Source of the DNA: an uncultured Verrucomicrobiota bacterium
Lineage (GTDB): Bacteria > Verrucomicrobiota > Verrucomicrobiia > JABWAM01
NCBI GenBank assembly: GCA_964475835.1
Contig: CAYYYL010000012.1
Coordinates: forward strand, 14,201 to 78,200
Direction of reading: 5' to 3'
DNA length: 64,000 nucleotides
The first letter of the stretch is position 1; each line of letters opens with the position of its first letter. A program made the position numbers and the translations under genes. Of the stretch, positions 4,756 through 33,853 are shown in pieces. Under the pieces are notes generated by a model. The model was not told where the DNA came from. It ran no database searches and was given only the letters and a program-made list of their open reading frames with translations.

Positions 4756-7700
4756 TCACTGCCAATAGACCGCTCCCGGTCCTCCCAGATGCCCCATGTC
4801 ATTTCGGCTCGTCCCTACTGCAGGGGGAAGGACGGCGTCATTGGAACCCGACGCTGGATTTCCTGCGTCCACGGTGGGTGAATTGGTGAGCATTCGGTAG
4901 CTTCCATCAAAAACAGGATCCTCTTCAATATTTCCTATTGCATTGAAACCTCCCTGCACGTCGCTGTATTCGACCTTCATATCGCCTGAAATTTGAGCGT
5001 CCCAGGTGGGCATAAGATAGCTGATTTTGATGCAACGACTGCCCTCGGCCGGATTGCGCTTGGAGGAGTCGCTCAAACTCATCGCCGACGTGTTTCCCAT
5101 CCAACCGGAGGGGACGTATTGGTCGTGGACATCTTTATAAATCCAAAACGGAAGAACTGGGGTAGGCGGGGTGGTCGGCAAGGGTGCCAGTCCCCCGTTA
5201 TCATAGACTATATCATCGAGATAGAAGGTCGCGCCCCCAGGGTTATCAGCCTTTGCAATGATAAAGGAAAACCCTCCGATCACGTCGCTTAAATTCATGC
5301 CCGCGAGATTGATTTCATACGACTGCCACGCCGTGCCGAGCGTCAAAACAGGCGTTTCTGCCCGGAATGTGTCGGGGAACGGGCCAGCGATCCCGCCTGC
5401 CACAAATTTCACCTTCACTCCGGCCATCGCCCCACGCGCCATGAATTTTACCTTGGCCGCTCCAGTCAGATTATAACCGGCGCGAAAGATGGTTCCCCAA
5501 TTGTCATCCGGATTTTGCCAGTAGATCCCAGCCCAGCCATTGGTGATGGACAACGCCGCTGAATAGTCCACTCGAATGCTTTGGGTGCCTGAGCCCGGCG
5601 TCGAGGTATCGACGGCGCTGAATTGCAAGGCACCCGCATCCCCCATCCATCCGGAGGGAAGATAATATCGATCGTGCGCCTCTTTATAGATCGCATGAGG
5701 CAGGGGAAGCGCCGGCACGGAATTCGTCGGGCCAGCCGCTCCACCATTGTCGATCATGATGTTGTCGACATAAAACACCCACCCGGTTGGATTGGACGCC
5801 GCGTTGTCCGCCCATGTGTACACAAACCCAAACCCCCCGCTCACACGGCTCAAATCCTTTCCCGTGAAATCGAGCTCATATTGCTTCCAGACATTGGTCA
5901 GTGTAATGAAACCAGTCGACAATTTCGGCAATGTGTCGGGATAGGCCCCAGTGATTCCCCCTGCAAAAAATTCCAGAGAAATACCCGGAGTCTCTCCTCG
6001 CGCCATGAATTTCAATTTCTTCGCACCCGTCAAATTTAATCCACCATTCGGAACGCTTCCCCAATTGTTCATGGGACCCTGCCAGTAAATTCCGGACCAG
6101 CCCCCCGGATAGTTATGGCTCACTTCATTGTTGAAATAGAAAATGGAATTCACCACCTCCGCCCCCCCGTGATCGTTATGAACCGCGGGCGCAGTCTTAT
6201 TGCCGATAAAGCTGCAATTTGCGGCGTACATCCCACCGGTAGATACACACAAGGCGCTTCCGAGAATCATCTTCCGTCCTCCAGCGATCAGATCGTTTCG
6301 AGCAAAAAGATCATTGAACAACGTCAGGATTCCTGAATCCTGATAAACCGCTCCCCCGGAAGCAAAACTCCAGTCGGGAGTGCTGGGGCCCGCGTTTACA
6401 TAACAAGCGTTATCGAGAAAAGAACAGCCACGGAACGAGTTGGTTCCTCCACCTGCCCAAATGGCTCCACCCTGGGCGTAACGACCAGTGGCTGCATAAA
6501 TCGTCAGGGCACGAGCCTGGTTGTTGCTGAAATCACATCTCGTCAATATGGAACTTCCAAAAACCCTCACCGCTCCGCCCTGGGTATCCACATAGGGCGT
6601 GAACGCAGGATCGGTCATGTTACCGCGAAATACACAGTGATCCGCAGTAAAGGTACCATTGCTTAACACCGCACTTATGGCCCCTCCCGCGGCAAAGGCG
6701 GTGTTGTTGGTGAAGGTGCAACCTGGAAGATTCAGATCTCCCTTCGACAAAACGAGGTCGATCGCCCCGCCACGATTCTCTGAACTATTGTTAAAAAAGC
6801 TGCAATGATCGATGACCGGCACATTTTCCACCAAGCGCAAGGCGCTATTGGAAGCACCCTTGAACACGCACCAATGAAACTCACTCCCTGGAATGGTGTT
6901 CTGAAATAATAGTCCCTGCCACGACACCGAATTGGTACCCGCCGCCTGGAAAACGATGGGTTGAGACTGGGTTCCCAACGCTTTGATCACGCCATTCACA
7001 CGAACAGCGGTGTTGCTCTGGAATTGGATCGTGACCCCAGGTTGGATTTCCAGGTCATTGATGAGAAGGTCGTTTGTCACAAGAACCGGTGACATCGACG
7101 CATCCCAGAACTGACCCGCGATCGTCCCCCCCACCGGCGTGGGACCGCGGGCCGGCACCGTCAATACCGCCTCAGGACTCGTAATCGAACCCACCCCATT
7201 ACTCACAATCACCCGATACGTGCTGCCACTATCGGCAAAAAACAAGGGGGGCGTGACATAGGTCGCCTGGGTCGCCCCAGGGATATTCACCCGGTTCTTC
7301 TGCCACTGGTACGACAATGGCAAATCACCCCCCGTCACAATCCTCCACGTGGCACTCCTTCCCAGGGCCACCGCCTGCGATTCAGGGGGTGACACAATCA
7401 CAGGAGCACCCCCATTCCAATCAATGGCTCCAGGACCACCAAAGTGTCCCATATCATTGCGAACCGACCCGAGTGACGGGGGAAAGAGGGTGTCATTGTA
7501 GGCGGGAGCGGGATTTCCCGCGTCAATCGTCGGCGAAGGCGCCACGGGACGATTCTGACCATCCAGTGCAGGATTTAAATGGATGTTCCCAGTCCCCGGT
7601 GCCATTCCATACACATCACTGAAATCCACCTGTACCGAACCGGAAATCTGGGGTCCGTTACTGTTGTTAAAATAAAAAATGCTGTTCTGCGCCATCGCCG

Positions 7701-10254
7701 TTCCTCCCTGGTTGTGAATGACCGGGGCGGCCTGATTCTTAAAGAAGGTACTATTCTGGACCGCGAGACTTCCTGCTGAAACATACACGGCACTGCCGAG
7801 CATCTGATTTCGGCCCCAAGCCATCAAATTCTGATCGGTAAAAAGGCAGTTGATGAGATTCAATACGCCGGATCCCTGATACATCGCACCGCCATGGGCA
7901 AAACTCCAATCCGGAGTACTCGGTCCCGGCATCAGATAGCATTGGTTGGCGCCAAAAGAACAGGCCCGGAAGGAATTGGTTCCGGTATCACACCACACCG
8001 CCCCCCCACGCGCATAGCGCCCCGGTGCAGTGAAAATGGTATAGGCGTCCGCCTGGTTGTTCTGAAACCGGCAGCGGATGAAGGAGGAATTTCCCGAAAT
8101 TTTCACCGCCCCTCCGGCGGTGTCGATTCCTGAAGTAAACGAGGGGTTCAAACTGTTGCCCTCGAAAACCCCATCCTGAACGTTCAAACTTCCCTTGCTC
8201 ATCACCGCCTTTATCGCCCCGCCGCCATACACCGCGGAGTTGTTGGTGAAATCGCAGCTTTGAAGATTGAGATCACCCTGCTTGAAGGTGGCATGAATAG
8301 CTCCTCCGTCGTCTGTTGACCGGTTATTGTAAAATCGGCAGCTCTTGATGACAGGAACGCCATCCTGAAGTCGTAGCGCTGTGCGCGTGGCCCCTTGAAA
8401 GACACATCCTTGCAGAACACTCCCCGCCAGCGCGTTGGTGAGGACCATCCCCTGCCAGCCATTCGAATTCCCAGGAGCAGGTTGGAAAAGGACAGGCTTG
8501 TCCGACTGTCCCTGAACTTTCAGCAATCCCGAGGCTTTGATCCCACTGTTCGTTTGAAAGAGAACGATCACACCGGGATCAATCGTCAGGTTGCTGACCA
8601 CGAGATCTCCCGTCACAAGGTACGGGGACGTTGACTCCGACCAGACCTGCCCATTCACGACGCCACTCACCAGCGTGGGTGCACGCACCACGACCGTCAC
8701 CGTCGCTACAGCGGAGTCGGCACGTCCGTCATTCGCCTTATACGTAAAAGTATCGGTCCCAACGTAACCCGCCACCGGAGAATAAACAAAATCAGTTCCC
8801 GTTCCTGAAACGGTTCCATGCACAGGAGGACTCACCACCCCGTATGTCAGGACATCCAGATCGCTGTCGGTTCCCGAGACGCGAATCGTGACGGAAGCCC
8901 CCATACCCGTGCTTGCACTGCGGGCAAGCGCCACAGGAGGGTGATTTCCGGCAACCCCAACCTCGGAAAACACCACCTGCGTGGAATTCGTTCCCGTATT
9001 GGCGCTCACTTGAACAAGGTTCGTCCCAAAGCCCAACCCAAGTTTGAGATAAGCCGATACCACGCCGTTCGTTGAAGTCCGCACAATGAGAGTCGTCCCC
9101 GGCGTGGAATCGGGCGTGACAGCGAGTTGAGCTCCCCCCTGGGTGACACTGAATTTCACCGGGGCATTATTGAGATTCGCGCCCGCAACAACCGCCTTGA
9201 CCGTAAGTGGAAGCATTAGAAAGGAATTGGTCGGAGCCACCTGGCGATCCCCTCCCACAACACTCAAGACGGGAACCACTCCGTTGAAATAGTCCGTGGG
9301 GTCACTGGCACTCTGAAACTCCTGCAGATTGGAACGACCATCTCCATCCAAATCTCCAACGGGATCGACGCTCAGGGTCTGAAAATATCGAAGTCTCCAA
9401 CTATCCAGCATGCCCAGGGAACCCGTGTCCCCATCAAAATCACCCGTACCCACAATCTGCCATTGTCCGGGAAGGACAGACCCCGGAACCCAGCTGATGC
9501 CCGAAAGGACCGTGGTCCCATTCATGAATGTCACCGCACGATCCCCCGTTAACGCGTTCTGCCAGATCAGATCGGGTTTGCCGTCCTGATTTAAATCCCC
9601 TACGGCCGCAACCTGCCAGGAAGGGGGAACTGTGCCCACCGGAATCAAGCCGCCGGGAACCAGATTGTTGAAAAGCTGAAGACTGACATCCCCCGTCCCA
9701 GCATGCTCCACCACCAGATCCAGAAAGCCGTCCCCATTAAAATCCCCACATCCCTTGACCTGAAGAGCCACCGGCCAGGTGGCAAAAACCATGCTGTTTG
9801 TAATCTGCCCACCGCTCATGAAGGAAAAAATGCGCCCCCCCGTTGTCGTGTTTTGCCAGACAAGTGTGGTGCTTACATCCCGGCGAAAATCCCCAGCCGC
9901 CGCAATCTGCCATTCCGTGGGCACATTCGCGACATAGACCGCATTGCTTGCGACACACCCCGACATCAACAAGCCCCACCGATCCCCGGTCGTTGTGTTC
10001 TGAACAAGGATATCAGGACTTGGATCGGTATTCAGACGGCCAACCCCCGCGATTTTCCATTCGGGCGGAAGGGTGGCAAATGGAACGGCCACCGTGGAGG
10101 TCGTTCCATTCATGATCGTGACAAAACGCTCCCCTGTGGAGGTGTTTTCCCAAAGGACATCCGTCCTCCCATCCCCGGCAATCGCGTTCCACACCATCGA
10201 AAGGTGAATGAAAACCAGAAAGGTCCGAAAGCACAAAACAGGCCTGAAACTCAT
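4756..10254 (-). CDS. giant secreted mosaic surface protein: FG-GAP/VCBS-like repeats, Ig-like domains, two Pmp-type beta-helix units, inserted CBM-like modules
   Basis: ORF 4756..10296; start placed at MSFRPVLCFRTFLVFIHLSMVWNAIAG (10254, signal-like). Repeats of the type DILVQNTTTGDRW / TLVWQNTTTGGRI / DLIWQNALTGDRA are FG-GAP/VCBS-like. DLDGDGRSNLQEF is a Ca-binding-like motif. Many GGAI/GGAV plus F..N repeats point to a polymorphic-membrane-protein-type beta-helix. PLSYQWQKNRVNIPGATQATY...STYRVIVSNGVGS is I-set Ig-like. Confidence 0.85.
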   Translation of the reverse strand: MSFRPVLCFRTFLVFIHLSMVWNAIAGDGRTDVLWENTSTGERFVTIMNGTTSTVAVPFATLPPEWKIAGVGRLNTDPSPDILVQNTTTGDRWGLLMSGCVASNAVYVANVPTEWQIAAAGDFRRDVSTTLVWQNTTTGGRIFSFMSGGQITNSMVFATWPVALQVKGCGDFNGDGFLDLVVEHAGTGDVSLQLFNNLVPGGLIPVGTVPPSWQVAAVGDLNQDGKPDLIWQNALTGDRAVTFMNGTTVLSGISWVPGSVLPGQWQIVGTGDFDGDTGSLGMLDSWRLRYFQTLSVDPVGDLDGDGRSNLQEFQSASDPTDYFNGVVPVLSVVGGDRQVAPTNSFLMLPLTVKAVVAGANLNNAPVKFSVTQGGAQLAVTPDSTPGTTLIVRTSTNGVVSAYLKLGLGFGTNLVQVSANTGTNSTQVVFSEVGVAGNHPPVALARSASTGMGASVTIRVSGTDSDLDVLTYGVVSPPVHGTVSGTGTDFVYSPVAGYVGTDTFTYKANDGRADSAVATVTVVVRAPTLVSGVVNGQVWSESTSPYLVTGDLVVSNLTIDPGVIVLFQTNSGIKASGLLKVQGQSDKPVLFQPAPGNSNGWQGMVLTNALAGSVLQGCVFQGATRTALRLQDGVPVIKSCRFYNNRSTDDGGAIHATFKQGDLNLQSCDFTNNSAVYGGGAIKAVMSKGSLNVQDGVFEGNSLNPSFTSGIDTAGGAVKISGNSSFIRCRFQNNQADAYTIFTAPGRYARGGAVWCDTGTNSFRACSFGANQCYLMPGPSTPDWSFAHGGAMYQGSGVLNLINCLFTDQNLMAWGRNQMLGSAVYVSAGSLAVQNSTFFKNQAAPVIHNQGGTAMAQNSIFYFNNSNGPQISGSVQVDFSDVYGMAPGTGNIHLNPALDGQNRPVAPSPTIDAGNPAPAYNDTLFPPSLGSVRNDMGHFGGPGAIDWNGGAPVIVSPPESQAVALGRSATWRIVTGGDLPLSYQWQKNRVNIPGATQATYVTPPLFFADSGSTYRVIVSNGVGSITSPEAVLTVPARGPTPVGGTIAGQFWDASMSPVLVTNDLLINDLEIQPGVTIQFQSNTAVRVNGVIKALGTQSQPIVFQAAGTNSVSWQGLLFQNTIPGSEFHWCVFKGASNSALRLVENVPVIDHCSFFNNSSENRGGAIDLVLSKGDLNLPGCTFTNNTAFAAGGAISAVLSNGTFTADHCVFRGNMTDPAFTPYVDTQGGAVRVFGSSILTRCDFSNNQARALTIYAATGRYAQGGAIWAGGGTNSFRGCSFLDNACYVNAGPSTPDWSFASGGAVYQDSGILTLFNDLFARNDLIAGGRKMILGSALCVSTGGMYAANCSFIGNKTAPAVHNDHGGAEVVNSIFYFNNEVSHNYPGGWSGIYWQGPMNNWGSVPNGGLNLTGAKKLKFMARGETPGISLEFFAGGITGAYPDTLPKLSTGFITLTNVWKQYELDFTGKDLSRVSGGFGFVYTWADNAASNPTGWVFYVDNIMIDNGGAAGPTNSVPALPLPHAIYKEAHDRYYLPSGWMGDAGALQFSAVDTSTPGSGTQSIRVDYSAALSITNGWAGIYWQNPDDNWGTIFRAGYNLTGAAKVKFMARGAMAGVKVKFVAGGIAGPFPDTFRAETPVLTLGTAWQSYEINLAGMNLSDVIGGFSFIIAKADNPGGATFYLDDIVYDNGGLAPLPTTPPTPVLPFWIYKDVHDQYVPSGWMGNTSAMSLSDSSKRNPAEGSRCIKISYLMPTWDAQISGDMKVEYSDVQGGFNAIGNIEEDPVFDGSYRMLTNSPTVDAGNPASGSNDAVLPPAVGTSRNDMGHLGGPGAVYWQ
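4999..6126 (-). other. 376-aa cassette of two ~180-aa CBM-like modules in shifted phase, inserted within beta-helix unit 2
   Basis: Order is C-terminal module part (6126..5737), full module (5700..5188), N-terminal module part (5154..4999). Module motifs GIYWQ.P..NWG, NLTGA.K.KFMARG, W..YE..L.G..LS.V.GGF match the modules of the gene at 25459..31731. Confidence 0.8.
6127..7146 (-). repeat. beta-helix unit 2, main body (its 80-aa tail lies at 4759..4998, after the inserted cassette)
   Basis: aa 1051-1390 ending NSIFYFNN. Tail aa 1767-1846 (AQISGDMKVEYSDV...RNDMGHLGGPGAVYWQ) aligns with the unit 1 tail (PQISGSVQVDFSDV...RNDMGHFGGPGAIDWN). Confidence 0.8.
7426..8682 (-). repeat. beta-helix unit 1 of the giant protein (paralogous to unit 2)
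   Basis: aa ~539-957. This unit aligns along its whole length with unit 2 (e.g. SPYLVTGDLVVSNLTIDPGVIVLFQ vs SPVLVTNDLLINDLEIQPGVTIQFQ; PSTPDWSFAHGGAMYQGSGVL vs PSTPDWSFASGGAVYQDSGIL; NSIFYFNN in both). Boundaries are approximate. Confidence 0.8.
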
Positions 10255-10373
10255 AGGGGGAGCACCGATCCTACCCCCACGGACCCCCCATCTCAATCAA
10301 ATGACAGGACCCACATTCGCAAGTCTAATACCAGCGACTAAAACCTCCCTTGGACACCGCCAAAAAATTCGCC

Positions 10374-23047: not shown

Positions 23048-23643
23048 CCCTTGCCAACATTGTCACGCTGACCCGGATCGGACTTATTCCGTGTTTTGTG
23101 GTTGCCGTCGTTTACTATGCTCAAAGCGTCAAACTTGGCATGCCTAATCCATGGCAACACACGCTCGCAGTCACTTTTTTCGTCATCGCCGCCTCGACGG
23201 ATGCCCTCGACGGCTACCTCGCCCGTCGATTAAATCAGAAAAGCCGGTTTGGCAGCATTCTCGATCCCATCGCCGACAAAGCCCTTCTCCTCACCTCCAT
23301 CGGCCTTCTCAGCTGGAATCATGGAGATGCGTTCGACCAACTCCCACTCTGGTTTCCGATCGTCATTTTGAGTCGCGACGTCATTGTCGTGCTCGGAGTT
23401 GTCATTGTCTTCATGATGGGCAAGGGCTTTGACATCGAACCCCATTGGATTGGAAAAGTGGCCACCGTCCTTCAGATGATCACCGCCGGACTTGTTCTCG
23501 TTCGGGTCCCCGAGGGGTACTGGACGACCCCCATGTGGATTTCAGGAGTTCTCACCGTGGTTTCAGGCATCATCTACGTTATCGAGGGAAGTCGGAAAAT
23601 GACCCATGACGACCTCCATCAATCGGGCCGCTCCCGATCGTAA
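23044..23643 (+). CDS. pgsA: CDP-alcohol phosphatidyltransferase (phosphatidylglycerophosphate synthase-like)
   Basis: ATGA overlap with lnt. DALDGYLARRLNQKSRFGSILDPIADK matches the D-G-x2-A-R-x8-G-x3-D-x3-D motif. Confidence 0.85.
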   Translation: MTLANIVTLTRIGLIPCFVVAVVYYAQSVKLGMPNPWQHTLAVTFFVIAASTDALDGYLARRLNQKSRFGSILDPIADKALLLTSIGLLSWNHGDAFDQLPLWFPIVILSRDVIVVLGVVIVFMMGKGFDIEPHWIGKVATVLQMITAGLVLVRVPEGYWTTPMWISGVLTVVSGIIYVIEGSRKMTHDDLHQSGRSRS

Positions 23644-24443
23644 CTCCATCCCCTCACCTTTTCGACCTTTACGAGACGCGCACTCACAGTTCCCACCGAA
23701 AGATGGGACACCACCTTGAGCGGAATTCGATATTCATCCCGACTTACCCATGCGGTCATCTTCCCTTTTTTTACGAATCCCTCGAGATAGTCTGACGTTG
23801 GTTCCACTTTAAATGCTGGAATGGATTTGAAGTCCGGCAGGGTTATCTGTTCCTCACTGATTTTTCGGATCGTAACTTCATAATTTCCCTTATCATTTGC
23901 AAGGATGGCACTGGCCGAGTCGCGCCCGGTCCAATCCAGACTTCGCATGAAGTAGATCAACGAAAACTTGTCCTGCACCCCTGCACCCGGAATTTCAAAC
24001 CATTGGGCTTCACCGGTCGTATACGACTGGACACCGCCAAGTTTTCTTTCGGGAAAAAACCAGCTCTCCTCCCAGGTCACCCGCCCCCGTTCGGAACGCT
24101 TTTGCAGAAAGCGAAGTGAGGTTCGATTTACAGAGTCATATTCGCTCTCCATGTGCGCAAACACCGGATAGAGCGTGGAAACGAAATCATTGGATTTCGC
24201 TTCAATCACAAATCGAAATCTACCGGTTTTCATCCCCTCAAAAACCTCAAACACCCCACGGCCCACCATGAATGGTCCCCAATAAAAGTGATAGGTCAAC
24301 CTCTCCCCTGCCTGAAATGGGTTCTCAGCCCTCAAATCCTGAAAAATCCCAAACAAAACCCAACCAAGGAACAACCAGAAGAGAAAACATCTCTCTAATC
24401 GGTTTTGTGACTTTGTATTCCACCGCATGCCTGACCTCAGCAT
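23619..24443 (-). CDS. DUF3108-like secreted protein
   Basis: Signal-like N-terminus. GERLTYHFYWGPFMVGRGVFEV and the C-terminal beta-rich pattern resemble DUF3108. The 3' end overlaps pgsA by 25 nt (convergent). Confidence 0.6.
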   Translation of the reverse strand: MLRSGMRWNTKSQNRLERCFLFWLFLGWVLFGIFQDLRAENPFQAGERLTYHFYWGPFMVGRGVFEVFEGMKTGRFRFVIEAKSNDFVSTLYPVFAHMESEYDSVNRTSLRFLQKRSERGRVTWEESWFFPERKLGGVQSYTTGEAQWFEIPGAGVQDKFSLIYFMRSLDWTGRDSASAILANDKGNYEVTIRKISEEQITLPDFKSIPAFKVEPTSDYLEGFVKKGKMTAWVSRDEYRIPLKVVSHLSVGTVSARLVKVEKVRGWSYDRERPD

Positions 24444-24475: not shown

Positions 24476-25273
24476 CTAATACATTCCTGGATTATGACCT
24501 GGAACGACATTTTTCTCCTTGATCGTTCCTTTCTTCAAAGTGGCAACATGACCATCACAAAACAACGCATTGGCGTTATTTCGATGGCGATACCGGAGAT
24601 TCGATCGATTGCCTGCAGCAAGTCCATCCTGGTCCAAACCTGTATTGGCAGCCGTATCCTGGGTTGCACTCGTCCTTGCAAAGTTAACACCCATGGCTCC
24701 TGCCCCCACAGAATCCTGAAAAGTGTTGCCCGGCAATGCATCCATCGTATCCAGCTGCATGGCATCTCCCACAAGAATCGTTTCCGAGCCCCGCCACATG
24801 GTGGATGCCTTGGTCAGGGTGGTAAGTGCTGCAGGGGTAAAAGTCGCCGGCGTATTTCCAGACCAGGTTGCCACATTGGGACAAATTCCCTGATGAATCG
24901 AATACGTGGAAATATTGTTTCCATGAGTCTTCATGGTCCGCGAGGGACATAAAAATACAGTGGGCCGAACGGTAATGGAACCTCCCAAATAGGGTGAGAT
25001 GGCATAATCCCATTGATCAGGCAGCCCTGCAACCGGGGCCGCAACCCCACTCCAAGGATAATATCCCGCATTCTCCGACACATAGATCTGCATTGCCACC
25101 CCGATCTGTTTCAAGTTGGACATGCAGGAAGCCGATCGAGCCGACTCACGAGCCCCTGAAATTGAGGGAATGAGCATGGCTGCCAGAATTGTGATAATGG
25201 CCATCACGACAATCAATTCCAACAGGGTAAAAGCCCTTCCTGACGAAGTGGATGACGATCCGAATCGCGTCAT
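24476..25273 (-). CDS. prepilin-type N-terminal cleavage/methylation domain protein with H-X9-DG (DUF1559) C-terminus
   Basis: GRAFTLLELIVVMAIITILAAMLIPS is the prepilin motif. NALFCDGHVATLKKG is the H-X9-DG-type ending that is abundant in Planctomycetes/Verrucomicrobia. Confidence 0.9.
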   Translation of the reverse strand: MTRFGSSSTSSGRAFTLLELIVVMAIITILAAMLIPSISGARESARSASCMSNLKQIGVAMQIYVSENAGYYPWSGVAAPVAGLPDQWDYAISPYLGGSITVRPTVFLCPSRTMKTHGNNISTYSIHQGICPNVATWSGNTPATFTPAALTTLTKASTMWRGSETILVGDAMQLDTMDALPGNTFQDSVGAGAMGVNFARTSATQDTAANTGLDQDGLAAGNRSNLRYRHRNNANALFCDGHVATLKKGTIKEKNVVPGHNPGMY

Positions 25274-25382: not shown

Positions 25383-25423
25383 CAAAAAACCTGTATCCAG
25401 TCGTCCCCACGACTGGATACAGG
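25383..25423 (-). terminator. rho-independent terminator downstream of the 2090-aa gene
   Basis: Perfect 14-bp stem (25390..25403 cctgtatccagtcg / 25410..25423 cgactggatacagg) with a 6-nt loop, followed on the minus strand by TTTTTTG (25389..25383). Confidence 0.85.
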
Positions 25424-25458: not shown

Positions 25459-28400
25459 CTATTCGTAACGAATATTATCCAGATAGAACGTGGCGCCTGA
25501 TGGATTGTCGGTTTTGTTAAACACACAACAGAAACCACCCACCACACGGGTTAGATCCTTGCCAGCAACACTCATCTGATATTGCTGCCAGGCACTCGTG
25601 AGGGTGATCACAGGCGTGACTGTCTTGAATGAATCCGGGTAAGGCCCGGAAATTCCACCCGCAATGAACTGAACCTTTTCACCACCCACCTGACCACGAG
25701 CCAGGAATTTGATGGTGGTCGCACCCGTCAGATTCAATCCACCGTTCGTCACCGTTCCCCAATTTCCATTGGGATTCTGCCAGTAGATTCCCGACCAATT
25801 ATTGCCTAGTGTGGCATCGCCACTGTAGACAATCTTTATGCTCTTGGTCCCCTCACCCGGATTGGACGTATCCGTATCCGAAAACGTCAGATCCGTGTAA
25901 TCCCCCATCCAACCCGTCGGCCCGTATTTGTCGTGTGCATCGCCAAAAATAACCAGAGGCAACACGGTTTGAGGAGGAGGAGGAGGAGGAGGGGTAATCG
26001 TAGGTGCCGTTCCCGTATCCACATCGATATAGTCGAGGTAGAAGGTTGCCCCACTCGGATTGTCCGTCTTGTTCAAAACAAAGGCGAAACCACCCACCAC
26101 ACGAGTCAGATCCTTGCCGGTCAGGTCCAGGGTGTATTGCTGCCATGCCGAGGTGAGAGTCACCACCGGACCCTGGGACTTGTAGGTATCTCCATAAGGT
26201 CCAACAATTCCACCACTGATAAACTGAACCTTCTCCCCTCCCACCTGGCCTTTGGCCCAGAAATGGACCGCTTTGCCACCCGTCAGATTTAGACCCCCAT
26301 TGGTCAATGTTCCCCAGTTTCCATTGGGGTTCTGCCAATAGATGCCAGCAAACCCATTTCCGCCAATACCACTGTAGGCAATTTTGATACTATTGAACCC
26401 TTCTTTCGGACTGGTCGTGTCCGAATCCGAGAACGTAAGGGAAGTCACGTCTCCCATCCACCCCGTGGGTCCATACTTATCATGGGCATCCTTGTAAATA
26501 AACAGGGGCAGGGTTTGAACGGGTCCGGGAGGGGGATCCACCGGCGGGGGCGTCCCGTTATCGAAGTAGATATTATCCAGATAGAACTTCGCCCCGGTGG
26601 GGTTGTCCGCCTTGGTTGCCGCGAACGCGAATCCACCCACCACGCGGGTCAGATTCTGTCCGGCAAGATTCAATTCAAAATTTTGCCACGCCGTGGTCAG
26701 GGTCACCGTCGGCCCAGTCACCTGATACGTGTCACCATAGGTGCCGGCGATTCCTCCGCTGATGAATTGAACCTTCTCCCCTCCAATCTGCCCACGTGCC
26801 TGGAACTTCACCTTCAGGGCGCCCGTTAGATTATACCCAGCCGTGGAGTTTGTCCCCCAATTGTTCGCTGGGTTCTGCCAATAGATTCCGCCAAAGGCAG
26901 GGGCCGTGGGCGATGAAGGGGTGTATTGCACGCTGATGCAGGCAAAACCGCCGCCGGTATTTGTGAGTACTGCATCGTCCAGCGTCAATCCGACGATATC
27001 CCCCATGTATCCGCTCGGAGCATATTTATCATGGGAATCCTTGTAGATGTAGAAGGGCCACGAGGCTGGAGTCGGAAGCGTCGGAACCGAAATCGAACCG
27101 TTCTCATAGCGAACGCTGTCGATGAAGACAGTCGCCCCGCTGGGAGAAAGGGACTTCAAGAAGCCGATTGCGAAACCATCCACCACGCGACCCAATTCCT
27201 GGCCGGTGAGGTCGATTTCGAAATCCTGCCATGCCGTTCCGACAGTCAGAATGGATGACAACACCTTGAAGTTGTCGCCATACGGTCCATCCACGCCACC
27301 GGCAAGGACTACAAACTGCTCCCCGCCAACAAGACCGCGGGCCTGGAATTTCACGCGACGAGCCCCGGTCAGATTATAACCTCCGTTGGGATCGGTTCCG
27401 AGGTTGTTCGCCGGATTCACAAAAGGCACTACAGCGAAGCCTTGTCCGGCACTCACCGCTCCAGAATAAGTGAAGCGCACACATTTGGTGCCCTCACCCG
27501 GATTCACGGTCTCTTCACTGGCGCCCATATCTCCGATATCCCCCACCACCGTCGGGAAATATTGATCCACGCCATCGCGATAGATGTAAAATGGCCATGA
27601 AGCAGGGGTCGGCAACGGAGTTGTAATCCCATTGTCGTACCGCATGTTATCCACATAGACCGTCGCACCTGCAGGATTCTGGGCCTGAACAAGACCCACA
27701 CCAAATGCATCCACAACGCGGGACAAGTCCAATCCTGTCAGATCGAATTCGAAGGACTGCCAGGCGGTGGTGAGCGTCACCTGACCGGTGGTGAAAAGGG
27801 TGTCGCCATAAGGAGCCCCCACAAGGCCTCCCAGAAGGAAGATCACCGTTTCACCGCCCACTTTTCCACGAGCCATGAATTTCATCTTCTTGGCCGCACG
27901 CAGATTAAATCCTCCGTTGGGATCACTACCAAATCCATCCTTCGGATTCTGCCAGATCGCGACGCCAAAGCCCTGGCCGCTGGAAGCTGCAGCCGAGTAT
28001 TGAACCTTGATCGATTTCGTTCCCTCTCCAGGGTTGGTGACATCGTTTTCATCGATCAGGAAGTCGCCCGTATCACCCACCACACTTGAGGTGTATTGAT
28101 CCACGCTGTCCTTGTAGATATAGAACGGCCATGAACCAGGCACCGGCCGCAGAATAGGCAACGTCGGCGTGTTAAGAATCCGGATGTTATCCAGATAGAT
28201 GGTGCCACCCGTCGGATTGTCCGCTTTCGTCACGGTGAACGCAAATCCACCGAGCGCATGGGTCATATCCTTGCCCGTCAGATCGATTTCATACTCCTGC
28301 CACGCCGTGGTCAGAGTCAACAACGAGGTCTGGGACTTGTAGGTATCGGGATAGGTTCCAACAATACCACCTGAGATGAAGGTTGCCTTCACGCCTGGAG

Positions 28401-31400
28401 CCCCGCCACGAGCGAAGAAACGCAGTTTGGTGGCCCCAGTCAGGTTTAATCCACCATTCGATACTGTTCCCCAGTTGTCAGCAGGATTCTGCCAGTAGAC
28501 TCCGGCAAAATTATTGGTGCTGAAGGTCGTGTTATACACAATCTTGATCGACTTCAAACCTTCCTGCGGATTTGTGGTGTCAGTATCCGTAAAGGTCAAA
28601 GTGTTCACATCCCCCATGAAACCCGTGGGAAGATACTTGTCGTGAGCATCCGTATAGATGTTCACCGGCCACGATGCAGGAAGTGGTGAAGGGGGACGAA
28701 CCGGGGGAACCGTTCCGTTGTCGTAGTAGATGTTATCCACAAAGAATGTGCCACCCAGCGGATTATCCGTCTTGGTAACCGTGAATGCAAATCCACCCAG
28801 AACGTGGGTCAGATCCTTGCCGGCAAGGTCAATCTCGAACGACTGCCATGCCGTGGTCAGGGAAAGAACCGCCGTCTGGGACTTGTAAGTATCCGGAAAG
28901 GTCCCTGCAATACCACCCCCCTGGAATTGAACCTTGGTTCCAGCCACTGCAGCACGGGCCATGAACTTAAGCTTAGTAGCACCCGTCAGATTGAATCCAC
29001 CATTACTTACTGTTCCGAAGTTGTTGGCGGGATTCTGCCAGAAAATTCCGGCAAATCCGTTAGTTCCCGCACCGCTGTACTGAACGCGGAAACTCTGGAA
29101 ACCTTCACCAGGATTGTTGGTATCGTCCGCCACGGTAAGGGACGTGACGTCACCAAAAAACCCGCTCGGAACATAACTCACACTGGTGTCCTTGTAGACA
29201 TAGACCGGCCATGAAGCAGGTACAGGCGACGGAGGTCGGGTCGGGATGACCGAACCGTTGTTGTAATAGATGTTATCCAAAAACAACGTCGCACCAGCAG
29301 GATTATCCACCTTGGCGAGCGTGAAGGCGAAGGCGCCAATCACACGACTGACATCCTTGCCAGCCAGGCTCACCTGGAAGGTTTGCCACGAGGTGGTCAG
29401 AGTGATGTTGGTCTGGACCAGAAATGAATCGGGATACGCTCCGGTCACCCCACCCCCTGTGATGGTGGCCTTCACTCCATTGGCGGAAGCTTTGGCCATG
29501 AAGTTCAAGGTTGTGGCACCCGTGAGATTGTATCCACCATTGCTGACGGTGCCAAAATTATTGGCAGGGTTCAGCCAATAGACACCTGCAAATCCATTCG
29601 TACTGGTAGCCGCATTGTACTGAATCTTGATGTTCTGCGCACCTTCACCTGGGGCGGCCGTGTCGGTATCCGAAAACGTGAGCGAGTTGAAATCACCGAA
29701 GAAACCGCTCGGCGCATAAGGTCCTTCCACATCCTTGTAAATATAGAATGGCCACGAGGGCGGCGTTGGCAACACGGGAGGAGTGGAAACCGTTCCGTTA
29801 TCATAACGGATATTGTCGAAAAACACGGTCGCTCCAGTCGGATTGTCCGCCTTGCTCATCGCAAAGGCAAAGGCTCCCACCACACGACTTAAATCCTTGC
29901 CTGCGAGATCGATCTCAAAGTTCTGCCAGGCGGTTGTCAGAGTGGTCAGCGGAAGGGCAGACTTGAAGGTGTCCTGGAAGTTAAACGAGGTCTGATAGCT
30001 CCCCGTCACACCACCGGCCACAAACTGCACCTTGGCCCCGGCAACCGAAGCGCGGGCCATGAATTTCAACTTCAGGGCACCCGTCAGATTGAAACCTCCA
30101 TTGGTCAGTGTTCCAAAGTTGTTCGCAGGATTCAACCAGTAGACTCCGGCAAACGTGTTGGGGCCCGTCGGAGTATATTGAACCTTGATATCCGCAAATC
30201 CTTCACCGGGATTGATGGTGTCTGTGTCCGTAATCACCACATCACTGGTATCTCCAAAATACCCGCTCGGAGCATAAGAACCCTCCGAATCCTTGAAGAT
30301 ATAGAAGGGCCATGTCGGGGGAGTCGGAAGGGCCGGGAAGGTGGGGGTCACACTGCCGTTATCATAGCGAACGTTATCCACAAAAACGGTTCCACCCGTG
30401 GGATAGTCCGTTTTTGCCACCACAAACGCGAATCCACCGATGACGCGGGTCAGATTTTTACCCGCCAGATCAATTTCATAATTCTGCCAAGCAGAGGTCA
30501 GGGTAACCGAAAGAGGGGTGACACTGAAGGTGTCTGCAAAGGCACCCGTGATTCCACCCGCGAGGAATTGAATCTTTTCCCCACCCACCTGACCGCGCGC
30601 CATAAACTTCAATTTGGTCGCACCAGTCAGATTCAGACCGCCATCAATGGTTCCAAAATTATTCGCGGGATTCTGCCAGTAAACACCAGCAAACCCCTGG
30701 GCTCCCGCACCGCTATACTGGATCCTGACGCAGGCAAAACCCTGACCAGGAGTGGTCTGGTTTGCATCATCCAGAACCAGCGAGGTGGTGTCTCCGAAAT
30801 AACCACTGGGTGCGTAGGGACCTTCCGCGTCTTTATAGACATAAAGAGGCCACGAAGGAGGAATCGTCACCGCTGTAATTCCTACAGCCGCCTTTGCTGC
30901 AGCAGTGGAGGTCGCAGTCGAGGAATTGGCCTTGGCGGGATCCGTTCCATTCAAAAATTCCTGACGGTTGGACACCCCGTCATGATCAAAGTCATCATCA
31001 CCCGACTGATTCAAATTGCCAAAATAATGAAGTTCCCACGCATCCGCCAGGCCATCATGATCCGCATCCACAAACGTCGCACCCTTGACCGAAACATGAT
31101 CGAATGTCGATGCATTCAAAACATGGGTTTGATGACTGCAAACCACAAGCCCCACCAACGCCTGACCCGCAAACGAAACTGAATCGCTCCCCACAAGCTT
31201 CCAACGAACTCCATCCGAGGATACAAACGCCTGAACCTCATTCCCCGAACGCGAAAGCTTCAACCAGACCGGCGCCTTGCTTTTTCCGCCGGATACCGAC
31301 TTCGTCTGGGCACCCGAATTCAAACGGCGCATAAAGGAGACGCCACTGCCAGGCGTCACCACAATTGAAGCATGTCGCGCGTTGGCATCCAGTGATTCTC

Positions 31401-31731
31401 GAATCATCAAACCCGCTTTTGCAAAAGTATGAGTCCCCTGAATAGTTGCGATGCGGGCCACGATTTCGCCATTCGCAGGCAGTGACTGATAAACAAACTG
31501 AAACGCATCCGTGCGACCCCAGATATCAGCCCCGGAACCGGAAACCGAAAATAGATCCCCCTCAATCGTTGCCGAACCCGCCTTCCCAACCCGACCCACA
31601 TCCTGGTTTGTCCAGAGCTCAATCGCGGAGGATTCAGCATGAGCCACATTGGAAAACAGGACAACGGAGACGAAACAGAACAGGAAGAGACGGGAACACC
31701 AGCGACGAAATCCGGCAGATGATTGAGTCAT
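25459..31731 (-). CDS. giant secreted protein: ConA-like lectin (DUF1349-like) domain, Ca-binding TSP3-like motifs, ten tandem ~180-aa CBM-like modules
   Basis: ORF 25459..31869; start placed at MTQSSAGFRRWCSRLFLFCFVSVVLFSNVAHA (31731, signal peptide). aa 80-262 (W..QDVG..G.A...G..F.V.GSGADIWG..D.F.FVYQ...G...ARI......FAKAGLMIRE...LSRSGN.V.AF.S.DG..W) fit a ConA-like pattern. DADHDGLADAWE...DDDFDHDGVSNRQEF are the Ca-binding motifs. The repeat array follows. Confidence 0.9.
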   Translation of the reverse strand: MTQSSAGFRRWCSRLFLFCFVSVVLFSNVAHAESSAIELWTNQDVGRVGKAGSATIEGDLFSVSGSGADIWGRTDAFQFVYQSLPANGEIVARIATIQGTHTFAKAGLMIRESLDANARHASIVVTPGSGVSFMRRLNSGAQTKSVSGGKSKAPVWLKLSRSGNEVQAFVSSDGVRWKLVGSDSVSFAGQALVGLVVCSHQTHVLNASTFDHVSVKGATFVDADHDGLADAWELHYFGNLNQSGDDDFDHDGVSNRQEFLNGTDPAKANSSTATSTAAAKAAVGITAVTIPPSWPLYVYKDAEGPYAPSGYFGDTTSLVLDDANQTTPGQGFACVRIQYSGAGAQGFAGVYWQNPANNFGTIDGGLNLTGATKLKFMARGQVGGEKIQFLAGGITGAFADTFSVTPLSVTLTSAWQNYEIDLAGKNLTRVIGGFAFVVAKTDYPTGGTVFVDNVRYDNGSVTPTFPALPTPPTWPFYIFKDSEGSYAPSGYFGDTSDVVITDTDTINPGEGFADIKVQYTPTGPNTFAGVYWLNPANNFGTLTNGGFNLTGALKLKFMARASVAGAKVQFVAGGVTGSYQTSFNFQDTFKSALPLTTLTTAWQNFEIDLAGKDLSRVVGAFAFAMSKADNPTGATVFFDNIRYDNGTVSTPPVLPTPPSWPFYIYKDVEGPYAPSGFFGDFNSLTFSDTDTAAPGEGAQNIKIQYNAATSTNGFAGVYWLNPANNFGTVSNGGYNLTGATTLNFMAKASANGVKATITGGGVTGAYPDSFLVQTNITLTTSWQTFQVSLAGKDVSRVIGAFAFTLAKVDNPAGATLFLDNIYYNNGSVIPTRPPSPVPASWPVYVYKDTSVSYVPSGFFGDVTSLTVADDTNNPGEGFQSFRVQYSGAGTNGFAGIFWQNPANNFGTVSNGGFNLTGATKLKFMARAAVAGTKVQFQGGGIAGTFPDTYKSQTAVLSLTTAWQSFEIDLAGKDLTHVLGGFAFTVTKTDNPLGGTFFVDNIYYDNGTVPPVRPPSPLPASWPVNIYTDAHDKYLPTGFMGDVNTLTFTDTDTTNPQEGLKSIKIVYNTTFSTNNFAGVYWQNPADNWGTVSNGGLNLTGATKLRFFARGGAPGVKATFISGGIVGTYPDTYKSQTSLLTLTTAWQEYEIDLTGKDMTHALGGFAFTVTKADNPTGGTIYLDNIRILNTPTLPILRPVPGSWPFYIYKDSVDQYTSSVVGDTGDFLIDENDVTNPGEGTKSIKVQYSAAASSGQGFGVAIWQNPKDGFGSDPNGGFNLRAAKKMKFMARGKVGGETVIFLLGGLVGAPYGDTLFTTGQVTLTTAWQSFEFDLTGLDLSRVVDAFGVGLVQAQNPAGATVYVDNMRYDNGITTPLPTPASWPFYIYRDGVDQYFPTVVGDIGDMGASEETVNPGEGTKCVRFTYSGAVSAGQGFAVVPFVNPANNLGTDPNGGYNLTGARRVKFQARGLVGGEQFVVLAGGVDGPYGDNFKVLSSILTVGTAWQDFEIDLTGQELGRVVDGFAIGFLKSLSPSGATVFIDSVRYENGSISVPTLPTPASWPFYIYKDSHDKYAPSGYMGDIVGLTLDDAVLTNTGGGFACISVQYTPSSPTAPAFGGIYWQNPANNWGTNSTAGYNLTGALKVKFQARGQIGGEKVQFISGGIAGTYGDTYQVTGPTVTLTTAWQNFELNLAGQNLTRVVGGFAFAATKADNPTGAKFYLDNIYFDNGTPPPVDPPPGPVQTLPLFIYKDAHDKYGPTGWMGDVTSLTFSDSDTTSPKEGFNSIKIAYSGIGGNGFAGIYWQNPNGNWGTLTNGGLNLTGGKAVHFWAKGQVGGEKVQFISGGIVGPYGDTYKSQGPVVTLTSAWQQYTLDLTGKDLTRVVGGFAFVLNKTDNPSGATFYLDYIDVDTGTAPTITPPPPPPPQTVLPLVIFGDAHDKYGPTGWMGDYTDLTFSDTDTSNPGEGTKSIKIVYSGDATLGNNWSGIYWQNPNGNWGTVTNGGLNLTGATTIKFLARGQVGGEKVQFIAGGISGPYPDSFKTVTPVITLTSAWQQYQMSVAGKDLTRVVGGFCCVFNKTDNPSGATFYLDNIRYE
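25462..30852 (-). repeat. tandem array of ten protein-coding ~540-nt (178-186 aa) modules
   Basis: Module starts (W/L of the WP.YIYKD motif) at nt 30852, 30312, 29754, 29211, 28671, 28131, 27597, 27060, 26511 and 25962. The array ends with the stop codon. Consensus: WPFYIYKD..D.Y.PSG(F/Y/W)(F/M)GD...IK(I/V)QY...FAG(I/V)YWQNPANN(F/W)GT..NGG.NLTGA.KLKFMARG..GG.KVQF.AGG..G.YPDT(F/Y)....LT.AWQ..EIDL.GKDL.RV.GGFAF...K.DNP.GAT.(F/Y).DNI.YDNG. Confidence 0.9.
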
Positions 31732-32065
31732 GGAAGAGCCTTTTGAGTTATGAGTTGCGTTTGAAAGAGTACGGGGAATAGTACGATAGTAGTATAGATT
31801 TGGTTGAGGAGTGTCAAGGCGGCGAAAAAAAAAAGCTCCAGCCTTATAAGGCCACCTTATTTCACACATTTTGAGGGTGTTTTCCCTTCACCACCCCCTC
31901 CCACTTCTGCCCCATTGGAGGGAAGCAGGAACGCATTTGTTGTATGACAAGAAATATCTAAAATCAGCAATACCACACTCATACAAATCATTTATATTCA
32001 ATGGGTTGTGAAAATTTTCTCATCCACACCTTGATTGCCTTTTCTCGAGCTGATATTCTACCTCC

Positions 32066-32512
32066 ATGAGATTTCTTTTCTTCTTATTAAGCCTTTCCAT
32101 CGCCACGTTTGCCGGGGCTGCAGAGGATGCTGCGGAACGCGCGAAGGAATTCAAGAACCTGCCCAAGGACAAAATTCACACCACGGATTCAGGACTCCAA
32201 TACATTGACGTCAAGAAAGGCACAGGTGCATCACCTCGGACCAATTACCCGGTGGCCGTCCACTATACCGGCTGGCTTCTTGATGGAACTAAATTCGACA
32301 GCTCGGTCGACCGGGGCAAGCCGTTCATGTTTCTCATTGGCGTGGGAGAAGTGATTCCCGGTTGGGACGAAGGTGTGTCCACCATGAAAGTCGGGGGAAA
32401 ACGCAGGTTGATTGTTCCCGCGAAATTGGCGTATGGGGAAGCGGGCGCTGGGGCTGTCATTCCACCCAACGCAACCCTCGTTTTTGACGTGGAATTGCTC
32501 GACGCAAAATAA
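32066..32512 (+). CDS. FKBP-type peptidyl-prolyl cis-trans isomerase, secreted
   Basis: Signal peptide FFLLSLSIATFAGA. VHYTGWLLDGTKFDSSVDRGKPF.F.IGVGEVIPGWDEGVSTMKVGGKRRLIVPAKLAYGE...IPPNATLVFDVELL is a canonical FKBP domain. Confidence 0.9.
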   Translation: MRFLFFLLSLSIATFAGAAEDAAERAKEFKNLPKDKIHTTDSGLQYIDVKKGTGASPRTNYPVAVHYTGWLLDGTKFDSSVDRGKPFMFLIGVGEVIPGWDEGVSTMKVGGKRRLIVPAKLAYGEAGAGAVIPPNATLVFDVELLDAK

Positions 32513-32557
32513 CCCCTCCCAATTTCCCGCCGATTCCCATCAGGATTTGAACTCGAC

Positions 32558-33013
32558 ATGGTGGCGTTGTTCGCCAAAATTTGGCTTCGTTCTATGCCCT
32601 CACGCCTGTGCCGGTATTCCTTTTCCGTTCTAGTCGTCCTCTTCCCGTTTCTCACCTCCTGCGAAACCCTTGATTCCGCAGGCCATTCCCCACACCCCAT
32701 CGCCCATGTGGTTGTCTGTTGGTTGAAAAACGCCGGAGACACCGATGGCCGAAACAAACTCGTCGCGGCTTCTCAAACCTTCCGTGAAATTCCCGGCATC
32801 CTCTCCATCAGCGCGGGGCCGGTTCTCCCGGGGAAAAGAACCGGACTGGACGCGAGCTTTGACGTCGCCCTCGTGATCACATTTGAAGATGCCCGGGCCC
32901 TTGAGAACTACGAAAAGCACCCCCTGCATCTCCAACGTGTGAAAGACACCCTCCTTCCTCTTGTGAAAAAATTTACAACCTACGATTTTGAAATTCAGAA
33001 TTCTGCCGATTGA
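32558..33013 (+). CDS. Dabb (stress-responsive alpha/beta barrel) family lipoprotein
   Basis: Lipobox FLTSC. HVVVCWLKN...FDVALVITFEDARALENYEKHPLHL..V fits a Dabb-domain pattern. Confidence 0.65.
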   Translation: MVALFAKIWLRSMPSRLCRYSFSVLVVLFPFLTSCETLDSAGHSPHPIAHVVVCWLKNAGDTDGRNKLVAASQTFREIPGILSISAGPVLPGKRTGLDASFDVALVITFEDARALENYEKHPLHLQRVKDTLLPLVKKFTTYDFEIQNSAD

Positions 33014-33019: not shown

Positions 33020-33853
33020 ATGATCATTCGAGAGACTCCAGCTGAAGCGCGCGTCCTGGTCGCCGCCTGTCTCGCCACCCAGCTCGGATCCTTCGGAAGC
33101 TGGCACACGGTCGCCTATGACGAATTTTACCTCGTCACCGAAGGCTCCATCTACGCGGGACTGGCTGAAGAGAAGGTGAAGATTGCCCCCGACACCCTTA
33201 TTCTGGTCCACAATGGGGAATCCCGCGGTTTCTGGAATGTTTCAAATCAAAATCCCAAACTCTGGACCCTTCTCTTTACCCCGGGGGCTCAGCCTTACGA
33301 GGGGCTTCCGGCTCTCCGCGAAACCGACCCCCGCAAGCGGATCTGGAAATTGACCCCCGACCAGGTCCTTACTTTCAAAAGCCTGTTTGTAAAAATTGCG
33401 GCGGAGCGCTCCTCCAAGCGAACCGCCAACGCCATCGCCGAAACCGCCTGGCTGCGGCTACTCATGGTCATGCTCCAACGTTGGACGGAAGCCAGGCCCA
33501 AGGAGGTCGCCGCTCAATCCGCCGGATCCGATCTTTTGAACCTATGGCAAAAAATCAATGACAGCATCTGGCAACCCGCCAGCACCAGGACCCAACTCTA
33601 TGCCGATATGCCGAACTACGACAGCTTGAGGCATCGCTTTCGGAAAACATTTGGCTCCTCCCCCCAGAAACTCCTCATGTCGATGCGCATGGATCAGGCC
33701 AAAAGCCTCCTTCTGGAATCCTCCAATACCATCAAGGAAATCGCCCTTCGCCTCGGTTACGCCAGACAACATGAATTCGCACGGGCTTTTCACAAATACG
33801 TCGGCTGCAGTCCCACCAAATGGCGCCAGGACCCCTTCTTTCCCGTTCGTTGA
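33020..33853 (+). CDS. AraC family transcriptional regulator
   Basis: C-terminal double HTH: YDSLRHRFRKTFGSSPQKLLMSMRMDQAKSLLLESSNTIKEIALRLGYARQHEFARAFHKYVGCSPTKWR. Confidence 0.85.
   Translation: MIIRETPAEARVLVAACLATQLGSFGSWHTVAYDEFYLVTEGSIYAGLAEEKVKIAPDTLILVHNGESRGFWNVSNQNPKLWTLLFTPGAQPYEGLPALRETDPRKRIWKLTPDQVLTFKSLFVKIAAERSSKRTANAIAETAWLRLLMVMLQRWTEARPKEVAAQSAGSDLLNLWQKINDSIWQPASTRTQLYADMPNYDSLRHRFRKTFGSSPQKLLMSMRMDQAKSLLLESSNTIKEIALRLGYARQHEFARAFHKYVGCSPTKWRQDPFFPVR

Follow-up and report, generated by a model that had tools for sequence, protein, structure and literature searches.

A secreted protein of an uncultured Verrucomicrobiota bacterium carries ten tandem copies of an undescribed module resembling carbohydrate-binding modules

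The stretch of DNA analysed here, referred to as the window, comprises 64,000 nucleotides (nt) from an uncultured Verrucomicrobiota bacterium (GTDB lineage Verrucomicrobiia; JABWAM01) and lies at positions 14,201 to 78,200 of contig CAYYYL010000012.1 (assembly GCA_964475835.1). It carries on its minus strand a gene, called the array gene below, for a predicted secreted protein built largely from ten tandem copies of one module. By its predicted fold the module falls among the beta-sandwich carbohydrate-binding modules (CBMs), and by its sequence it belongs to no family named in the databases searched. The array protein probably binds glycan multivalently and without catalytic activity; its putative ligand is a beta-glucan, beta-1,3-glucan being the leading candidate.

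Architecture of the array protein

The open reading frame of the array gene spans 25459..31869 on the minus strand (2136 codons). Its ATG at 31731 gives a coding sequence at 25459..31731, stop included, for a product of 2090 amino acids (aa) whose translation ends in ...YLDNIRYE; in our protein collection this product is P0268, of the same length. A Sec signal peptide is predicted at aa 1-32 (31636..31731, minus strand; MTQSSAGFRRWCSRLFLFCFVSVVLFSNVAHA, cleaved before ESS) from the translation, in which a basic n-region, a hydrophobic core of 12 residues and an AHA cleavage motif can be read by eye. Next comes a DUF1349 domain of the concanavalin A (ConA)-like type at aa 62-216 (31084..31548, minus strand), which scores 34.4 bits against the cut-off of 32.4 for Pfam PF07081 and covers positions 18-177 of the 179 in the profile. 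PF07081 is also precomputed for P0268, and concanavalin A-like superfamily is the label given to DUF1349 by the NCBI and JGI annotators. A weak Pfam match to the ConA-like GH43_C2 was found in the same N-terminal domain.

The DUF1349 domain is followed at aa 222-265 (30937..31068, minus strand) by an acidic linker, DADHDGLADAWELHYFGNL...DHDGVSNRQEFLNGTDP, which is kept in the orthologue P0121 described below. Its likeness to bacterial TSP3 is at the level of the motif only: the Pfam model TSP3_bac (PF18884) matches with an E-value of 0.25 and 11.7 bits against a cut-off of 25, and the NCBIfam model Amuc_1099_fam matches weakly at the same place (E 0.012). The ten modules occupy aa 294-2090, or 86% of the protein.

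The same DUF1349 head tops more than 100 giant secreted proteins (P0269-P0385) with unrelated bodies made of RHS/YD repeats, beta-helices, PQQ propellers, GH5, GH9 or GH16, and some of these proteins also have the TSP3-like motif. Few relatives of the head bear an organism name; those that do belong to Verrucomicrobia, Planctomycetes, Acidobacteria and Actinobacteria. The DUF1349 domain behaves like a common "head" or anchoring domain.

Ten diverged modules

The ten modules all lie on the minus strand. Module 1 (aa 294-473; 30313..30852) has its one-to-one counterpart in the first module of P0121 (61% identity). It is followed by module 2 (aa 474-659; 29755..30312), in which the GGE motif has lost the Glu that is invariant in the family, module 3 (aa 660-840; 29212..29754), module 4 (aa 841-1020; 28672..29211), the copy used for the structure model, and module 5 (aa 1021-1200; 28132..28671). 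Modules 6 (aa 1201-1378; 27598..28131) and 7 (aa 1379-1557; 27061..27597) are divergent and group together in a tree. The array then continues with module 8 (aa 1558-1740; 26512..27060), which shows the fewest departures from the family columns, and closes with module 9 (aa 1741-1923; 25963..26511) and module 10 (aa 1924-2090; 25462..25962), which are 72% identical to each other.

The modules are 178-186 aa long and joined by short, Pro/Thr-rich linkers; module 10 has 167 aa and no linker, and ends with ...YLDNIRYE at the stop codon. Many stand-alone members of the family likewise end at, or 1-2 residues from, ...YLDxIxYE. The ten-copy alignment contains 27 invariant columns, with a mean column identity of 63%, and between any two copies the identity is 41-72% at the protein level and 50-68% at the nucleotide level, modules 9 and 10 being the closest pair. 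Tandem Repeats Finder reported no DNA array, the copies being too diverged, and a repeat finder placed the ten copies in register with a spacing of 531-561 nt, 60-80% identity and a longest near-identical stretch of 20 nt. Because the copies are so diverged in DNA, the array is old and no read assembler could have merged its copies or multiplied them. Along the window, GC content is uniform.

Much of this had been proposed in a sequence-only reading of the window. Its ten module starts all fall in frame, at the first residues given above, and the translation upholds the length of 2090 aa, the 86% share of the modules, the period with a last module ending at the stop, and the nature of the linkers. 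Every motif that it quoted as a conserved block was recovered in the alignment, which also displays the deviant copies 6 and 7 (SSVVGD and PTVVGD; FGVAIWQNP and FAVVPFVNP), and its view of the array as old agrees with the divergence in DNA.

The copies were compared one by one at 63 positions that are conserved in at least 85% of the relatives outside the window. Modules 8-10, 1 and 5 depart at 11-13 of the 63, with module 8 at 11. The Glu of GGE, invariant in the family, is lost in modules 2-5. Module 6 is without the family-invariant G17, G55, Y57 and G139, and module 7 without G17, G55, Y57, W58, Q59 and G139. In nine of the ten copies W53 of the family consensus is replaced by F. Since the copies differ at family-invariant residues, the array is not a row of ten equivalent sites, and the substitutions suggest that some copies may differ in ligand affinity or have none.

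A CBM-like fold outside the named families

A model of module 4 was built with AlphaFold2 on 76 sequences. With a mean predicted local distance difference test (pLDDT) score of 94.4 and a predicted template modelling (pTM) score of 0.89, it is an all-beta sandwich of 11 strands. A Foldseek search of this model against the PDB put CBM30 first (1wmx, 2c24 and 1wzx; E 3.3e-7 to 8e-6, TM 0.61-0.63, about 190 columns, 16-18% identity), followed by CBM11 (1v0a, 6r3m and 6r31; E 3-6e-6, TM 0.58-0.60) and then by CBM4-2, CBM8, CBM29 and CBM22, with a sequence identity of 14-19% throughout. The top 13 PDB matches are without exception CBMs or enzymes that bear one (CBM30, CBM11, a mannanase CBM and CBM4-2). 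The module, as modelled, shares its fold with CBM30 (1wmx/2c24) and would belong, as a remote member, to the jelly-roll class of CBM folds, outside any named family.

At the sequence level, none of the models of Pfam, NCBIfam or the PDB covers the module at threshold. The best Pfam matches of single modules are to CBM30 (E 0.034), Mann_GBD_bact (E 0.042) and CBM_11 (E 0.08). Two of the ten modules match the CBM30 profile (PF21582), the better of them with that E-value of 0.034, and one matches CBM11 (PF03425). The CBM30 score summed over the whole protein reaches 32.9 bits, above the 27-bit cut-off, from partial matches that are each below threshold, the best of them covering positions 62-131 of the 170 in the profile. 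None of 76 family members, 66 of them from outside the window, matches a Pfam domain over the module, and the CBM_11 or CBM30 flags seen in a few relatives belong to a separate N-terminal domain. The choice-of-anchor J model (NCBIfam NF038128) is matched at E<0.01 by 34 of the 76 members, module 1 of the array included, with a best E-value of 2.7e-6; the scores are 27.7 bits for P0063, which has the best E-value, and 25.9 bits for module 1, both under the cut-off of 30 bits, and the match extends over positions 70-161 of 162. A profile of the module searched against PDB sequences gave only noise (E 0.75-0.87), no family member there having a solved structure.

Other apparent relatives were rejected. 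An apparent match to 8zvk (AaBglC) in P0127, a GH17 fusion protein of the family, lay within a Pro/Thr linker and was gone when that segment and the module were searched alone. The Uk-C domain of a Vibrio GH17 enzyme is not supported as a member of the same family (hhalign E 0.093, probability 0.6%, 60 columns), and a comparison by eye only found no resemblance between CBM72 and the module sequence. A search of the literature on Omnitrophota CBMs, new CBMs linked to GH17, choice-of-anchor domains and tandem CBMs of Verrucomicrobia yielded no publication on the module family.

Motifs particular to the family are PSGWMGD, WAGVYWQNPANNWG, GGE and AWQxYxIDL. Judged from Pfam, NCBIfam and the PDB, the module represents an undescribed CBM-like family, which could still coincide with a recently numbered CAZy family. 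The sequence-only reading had found no named family for the module, had likened it to CBM11-type beta-sandwiches and had seen a ConA-like domain at the N-terminus; the database searches, the model with its CBM30 and CBM11 matches, and the DUF1349 score above cut-off agree with it in turn.

Distribution of the family and an eight-module orthologue

A profile of the module was searched against 1.84 billion cluster representatives (clusters at 50% identity) and recovered 3574 clusters at E<=1e-3 and 1119 at E<=1e-30. In a set of species-representative genomes, 299 stretches were confirmed as relatives, and the loci described here are the best 80 of the 299. All 80 come from metagenome-assembled genomes, mostly of Omnitrophota, then of Elusimicrobiota/Endomicrobia, bins labelled Planctomycetia, Caldiserica, Verrucomicrobia and Brevinematales. 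Five copies of the module also occur in a beta-helix protein of a Methanophagales archaeon. The sequence-only reading had proposed a scan of PVC genomes for the family, which is commonest in Omnitrophota and Elusimicrobiota and is no speciality of the PVC group.

In these loci, the usual products are proteins of about 200 aa, with a signal peptide followed by a single module, or of about 385 aa, with two modules behind it. More than three copies are rare among the 150 best-scoring representatives listed, where the maximum is eight, in P0121, and the ten copies of the window protein are the highest count found. In the Elusimicrobiota/Endomicrobia loci L012, L026 and L066, three to six paralogous module genes stand in a row, some of them for proteins of about 900 aa. 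Such rows of paralogues are a different route to multivalency.

P0121 is the sole protein to share the long-array architecture. It has eight modules, is 54% identical to the window protein and carries the same DUF1349 head and acidic motif. At its locus (L081) the divergent, adjacent AraC regulator and a beta-CASP gene are found as in the window, and in place of the downstream genes of the window there are a Big_7/fn3 protein and a GH94 phosphorylase, the latter two genes off. Each of modules 1-4 has a one-to-one partner in the other protein, at 57-69% identity, and the distal modules group by lineage in the tree, so the proximal array is older than the divergence of the two organisms, in each of which the distal part expanded independently.

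Enzyme fusions and operon context

Domain partners of the module were counted in 82 multidomain representatives, in sets of 49 and 33. The Pfam family Glyco_hydro_17 (glycoside hydrolase family 17, GH17) is fused to the module in 15 of the 49 and 1 of the 33, and a phmmer search with one GH17 domain found a GH17-like domain in 20 of the 82. The GH17 domains, whose median identity is 38%, stand either before the modules (GH17-module-module) or after them (module-module-GH17). For that of P0127, a match with an E-value of 9e-31 was found to the Rhizomucor beta-1,3-glucanosyltransferase 4wtp. GH17 is the only recurrent catalytic partner in this sample; GH26, GH72, GH2_C, CBM48, CBM_4_9 and CBM_11 each occur as single cases. 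In its fold and placement the module is like a CBM in the sense of CAZy, being a discrete and confidently predicted fold that is contiguous within carbohydrate-active enzymes (GH17 in 20 of 82; GH26, GH2_C and GH72).

The commonest layout of the loci, found mainly in Omnitrophota, comprises genes for a PilZ protein, a solute-binding protein, two sugar permeases, a protein of about 790 aa, the two-module protein, a protein of about 430 aa, a protein of about 550 aa, a ROK protein, a coiled-coil protein and a LacI regulator. This conserved operon was seen in L006, L017, L031, L045, L053 and other loci, where it lies at about 4.8-13 kb in each. Over the 80 loci, a solute-binding gene is present in 38 and permeases in 45.

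The protein of about 550 aa is helical and has no Pfam match, and none was found for the 430- and 790-aa proteins, one of which was scanned. The 430- and 790-aa proteins carry the motifs GNE(N/V) and xE(F/Y)G, which we take to be typical of clan GH-A glycosidases. Their profile matches GH158 best (9oro, E 2.7e-18; BuGH158, 6pal, E 2.4e-14), followed by GH2-type barrels and a GH72 glucanosyltransferase. Enzymes of GH158 act on beta-1,3-glucans and require a beta-1,3 linkage at subsites -2 and -1 (PMC13195107). The GH17 fusions and the GH158-like genes in an operon with a sugar importer of the ATP-binding cassette (ABC) type are two independent associations, and both point to beta-1,3-glucan.

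A permuted block of modules in a second giant protein

A second module-bearing protein is encoded at 4756..10254 on the minus strand (open frame 4756..10296). It contains FG-GAP repeats, a Big_9/cadherin-like domain, two paralogous beta-helix domains and an Ig-like region. The sequence-only reading had reported the module in this protein, 15 kb away from the array; the module is indeed there, in the form of an out-of-register block of two module lengths and not of a plain copy. Alignment of the two beta-helix paralogues, which are 52% identical, delimits a 375-aa insert in the second of them (5002..6126, minus strand), between SIFYFNN and QISG. The insert consists of module strands 5-11 (6126-5710), which are the C-terminal two-thirds of a module, a full module (5709-5155) and strands 1-4 (5154-5002), the N-terminal third, joined by linkers. 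Between them, the two end pieces supply the strands of one complete module.

AlphaFold2 modelled the insert with a pLDDT of 89.6 and a pTM of 0.76, both terminal fragments being confident. The model suggests that the two end fragments may pack against each other at the point where the insert returns to the host loop, and so form a single module in circularly permuted order. If they do, the insert is a natural example of domain insertion with circular permutation.

A flagellin gene (10374-11273, minus strand) lies directly upstream of this giant gene on the same strand. Its presence next to a module-bearing gene, together with the weak fold match of the module to the flagellar protein FlaA1, is probably a coincidence.

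Gene neighbourhood of the array gene

An intrinsic-terminator-like hairpin with a perfect 15-bp stem followed by a T-run lies 35 nt past the stop of the array gene (25383..25423, minus strand). A scan for promoters and terminators gave counts no better than those of shuffled sequence, and this hairpin was the only convincing element. Upstream and divergent from the array gene stands a gene for an FKBP-type peptidyl-prolyl isomerase of 147 aa with a signal peptide (32066-32509, plus strand); a 164-aa open reading frame at 32263-32757 on the minus strand was discarded as spurious, the real gene there being that of the FKBP protein. Given the terminator after its stop and the divergent FKBP gene upstream, the array gene looks monocistronic.

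Further out, an open reading frame for a Dabb-like lipoprotein (32558-33013) lies between the FKBP gene and a gene for an AraC-family protein (33020..33853, plus strand; Pfam HTH_18/HTH_AraC). The latter is divergent from the array gene and is, from its family and position, a candidate for its regulator. Directly downstream of the array gene, on the minus strand, are genes for a pilin-like DUF1559 protein with a prepilin N-methylation motif (24476-25273) and a DUF3108 protein (23619-24443). Pilin-like DUF1559 proteins of this type are typical of Planctomycetes and Verrucomicrobia. Taken with the weak Amuc_1099-family match and the named relatives of the DUF1349 head, this neighbour points to an origin in Verrucomicrobiota.

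Discussion

From the fold of the module and its partners elsewhere we infer that the array protein probably binds carbohydrate. After removal of the signal peptide, the secreted product would present a ConA-like DUF1349 domain and a TSP3-like motif, followed by ten beta-sandwich modules on Pro/Thr linkers. Each module would bind a glycan chain weakly, and ten modules in a row would add avidity and reach, so that the protein could keep close to the bacterium a polymeric glycan, or particles or cells coated with glycan. Modules 8-10 are the copies closest to the family consensus, and modules 6-7 may have a low affinity, another ligand or no role beyond that of spacers. In the organism of the window, the array protein would be a stand-alone binder.

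Among characterised proteins, the best functional analogue is Cf-SGBP, a surface glycan-binding protein of Christiangramia forsetii with four tandem laminarin-binding modules named "CBMxx" (bioRxiv 10.1101/2023.09.07.556657). Both are non-catalytic secreted or surface proteins made of tandem beta-sandwich CBMs or CBM-like modules, that of C. forsetii being directed at beta-1,3-glucan. Cf-SGBP is elongated, and the shape of the cleft varies between its copies (bioRxiv 10.1101/2023.09.07.556657). It differs from the window protein in having four copies instead of ten and in belonging to a SusD/TonB-type system of Bacteroidota, and its solved module is not among the top 50 Foldseek matches of the window module.

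The nearest folds and the other families compared share some traits with the module and differ in others. CBM30 (PF21582; 1wmx, 1wzx and 2c24, from Clostridium thermocellum CelJ/Cel9D-Cel44A) is a beta-sandwich of about 170-180 aa, is the top fold match, is likewise appended to glycoside hydrolases and is the only Pfam family whose whole-protein sum passes the cut-off. However, no single module matches it significantly, and motifs such as PSGWMGD are found in the module family and not in CBM30. CBM11 (PF03425; 1v0a and 6r3m), which binds beta-1,3-1,4 and beta-1,4 glucans, is the second-best fold match, but a true CBM11-like domain precedes the module as a separate domain in some family members and the two sequence families are distinct. 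The Uk-C domain of the Vibrio vulnificus GH17 enzyme, a beta-sandwich of about 150 aa that binds laminarin and barley beta-glucan by means of three Trp (PMC9026390), is also appended to a bacterial GH17 and has a similar NLTG...F..KG...W..Y.I pattern, but hhalign does not place it demonstrably in the same family. With choice-of-anchor J (NF038128) the module has in common that it occurs with several different surface-sorting tails, but its scores remain under the cut-off and about half of that domain is covered.

Several observations weigh against a glycan-binding array directed at beta-glucan. The likeness to CBM30 and CBM11 is at the level of the fold only (TM about 0.6, 16-18% identity), a direct hhalign comparison of the module profile with the CBM11-like N-terminal domain of P0090 gave an E-value of 0.03 and a probability of 1.6%, and the lower Foldseek matches include proteins that do not bind glycans: the spirochaete flagellar sheath protein FlaA1, a gingipain K2 adhesin domain and a MAM domain. 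Most fusion partners in the family are non-enzymatic (beta-helix, PKD, Big, FG-GAP and cohesin domains, PEP-CTERM and type IX secretion system tails), and the 20 GH17 fusions are not independent observations because a few ancestral fusion events may underlie them. Within the window there is no GH17 or GH158-like gene, and the immediate neighbours of the array gene (FKBP, Dabb-like lipoprotein, pilin-like DUF1559 and DUF3108) are uninformative on sugars. Finally, the extra copies in Cf-SGBP gave no higher affinity for soluble laminarin (bioRxiv 10.1101/2023.09.07.556657), and avidity as the purpose of the array is therefore to be treated as a hypothesis.

Some of these same observations would fit a surface fibril, coat or adhesin with the DUF1349 head as its working end, in which the modules are protein-binding adhesin units or structural spacers forming a beta-sandwich stalk like that of Big or FN3 repeats. 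The head with its TSP3-like motif is common to more than 100 giant proteins with wholly different bodies, family members carry varied surface-sorting tails or adjoin PKD, Big and cohesin domains, the choice-of-anchor J match exists albeit below threshold, FlaA1 sheath, gingipain adhesin and MAM domains are among the fold matches, and the loss of invariant residues is tolerated in modules 6 and 7. However, pure spacers do not usually show conservation like that of the module, in which about 60 positions, with many aromatic or polar residues among them (YWQNP, NNWG, AWQ), reach at least 85% from phylum to phylum, and the commonest form of the family, a stand-alone secreted protein of about 200 aa, cannot be a spacer. 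Since carbohydrate is also what the GH17 fusions point to, together with the operon in which a sugar importer is encoded beside GH158-like enzymes, we consider a stalk or adhesin unlikely.

A different question is whether the modules bind a glycan other than beta-1,3-glucan, such as a beta-1,4 or mixed-linkage glucan, xyloglucan, a glycan of the cell's own envelope or a surface glycan of prey or host. The nearest structures, CBM30 and CBM11, bind beta-1,4 and beta-1,3-1,4 glucans according to their PDB titles, GH26, GH2_C, CBM48, CBM_4_9 and CBM_11 are also among the partners, the GH94 phosphorylase lies two genes from the orthologue P0121, and the window modules are off the family consensus at W53 (nine copies) and at the Glu of GGE (modules 2-5). 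Against these stands the fact that the only recurrent catalytic partners, the GH17 fusions and the GH158-like operon genes, belong to beta-1,3-glucan families (PMC13195107), which makes another ligand improbable. It is hardly credible that the ten copies result from an assembly error or that the gene is a pseudogene in decay: nothing was found in its favour beyond the general concern over long repeats in metagenome assemblies, whereas reads could not be misplaced between copies as diverged as these, the frame stays open over 6.3 kb with conserved motifs in every copy, GC content is uniform, and an independent metagenome holds the eight-module orthologue in the same gene neighbourhood.

Multivalent glycan binding, with beta-1,3-glucan as the leading candidate ligand, is the reading that we retain. 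It can be extended, tentatively and with more doubt than confidence, to the family as a whole. The module may define a new CBM family specific for beta-1,3-glucan, its one- and two-module forms being the extracellular capture component of glucan operons with ABC importers, GH158-like enzymes and ROK/LacI regulators in Omnitrophota and Elusimicrobiota, and the window protein may be a ten-armed tether for polymeric glucan or glucan-walled cells. If this holds, the family would be, outside the Bacteroidota, a functional counterpart of the surface glycan-binding proteins.

Members of the family, at least 3574 clusters at 50% identity, come from Omnitrophota, Elusimicrobiota, Verrucomicrobiota and Caldiserica, and even from a Methanophagales archaeon. 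Should the module prove to bind glycan, a large CBM family would have been missed entirely by current annotation, and recognition of that family would offer a first clue to the function of a conserved operon in poorly understood uncultured phyla and would improve the prediction of which organisms consume beta-glucans such as laminarin. The ten-module protein itself offers a natural test case of whether avidity, reach or ligand diversity lies behind the multiplication of CBMs.

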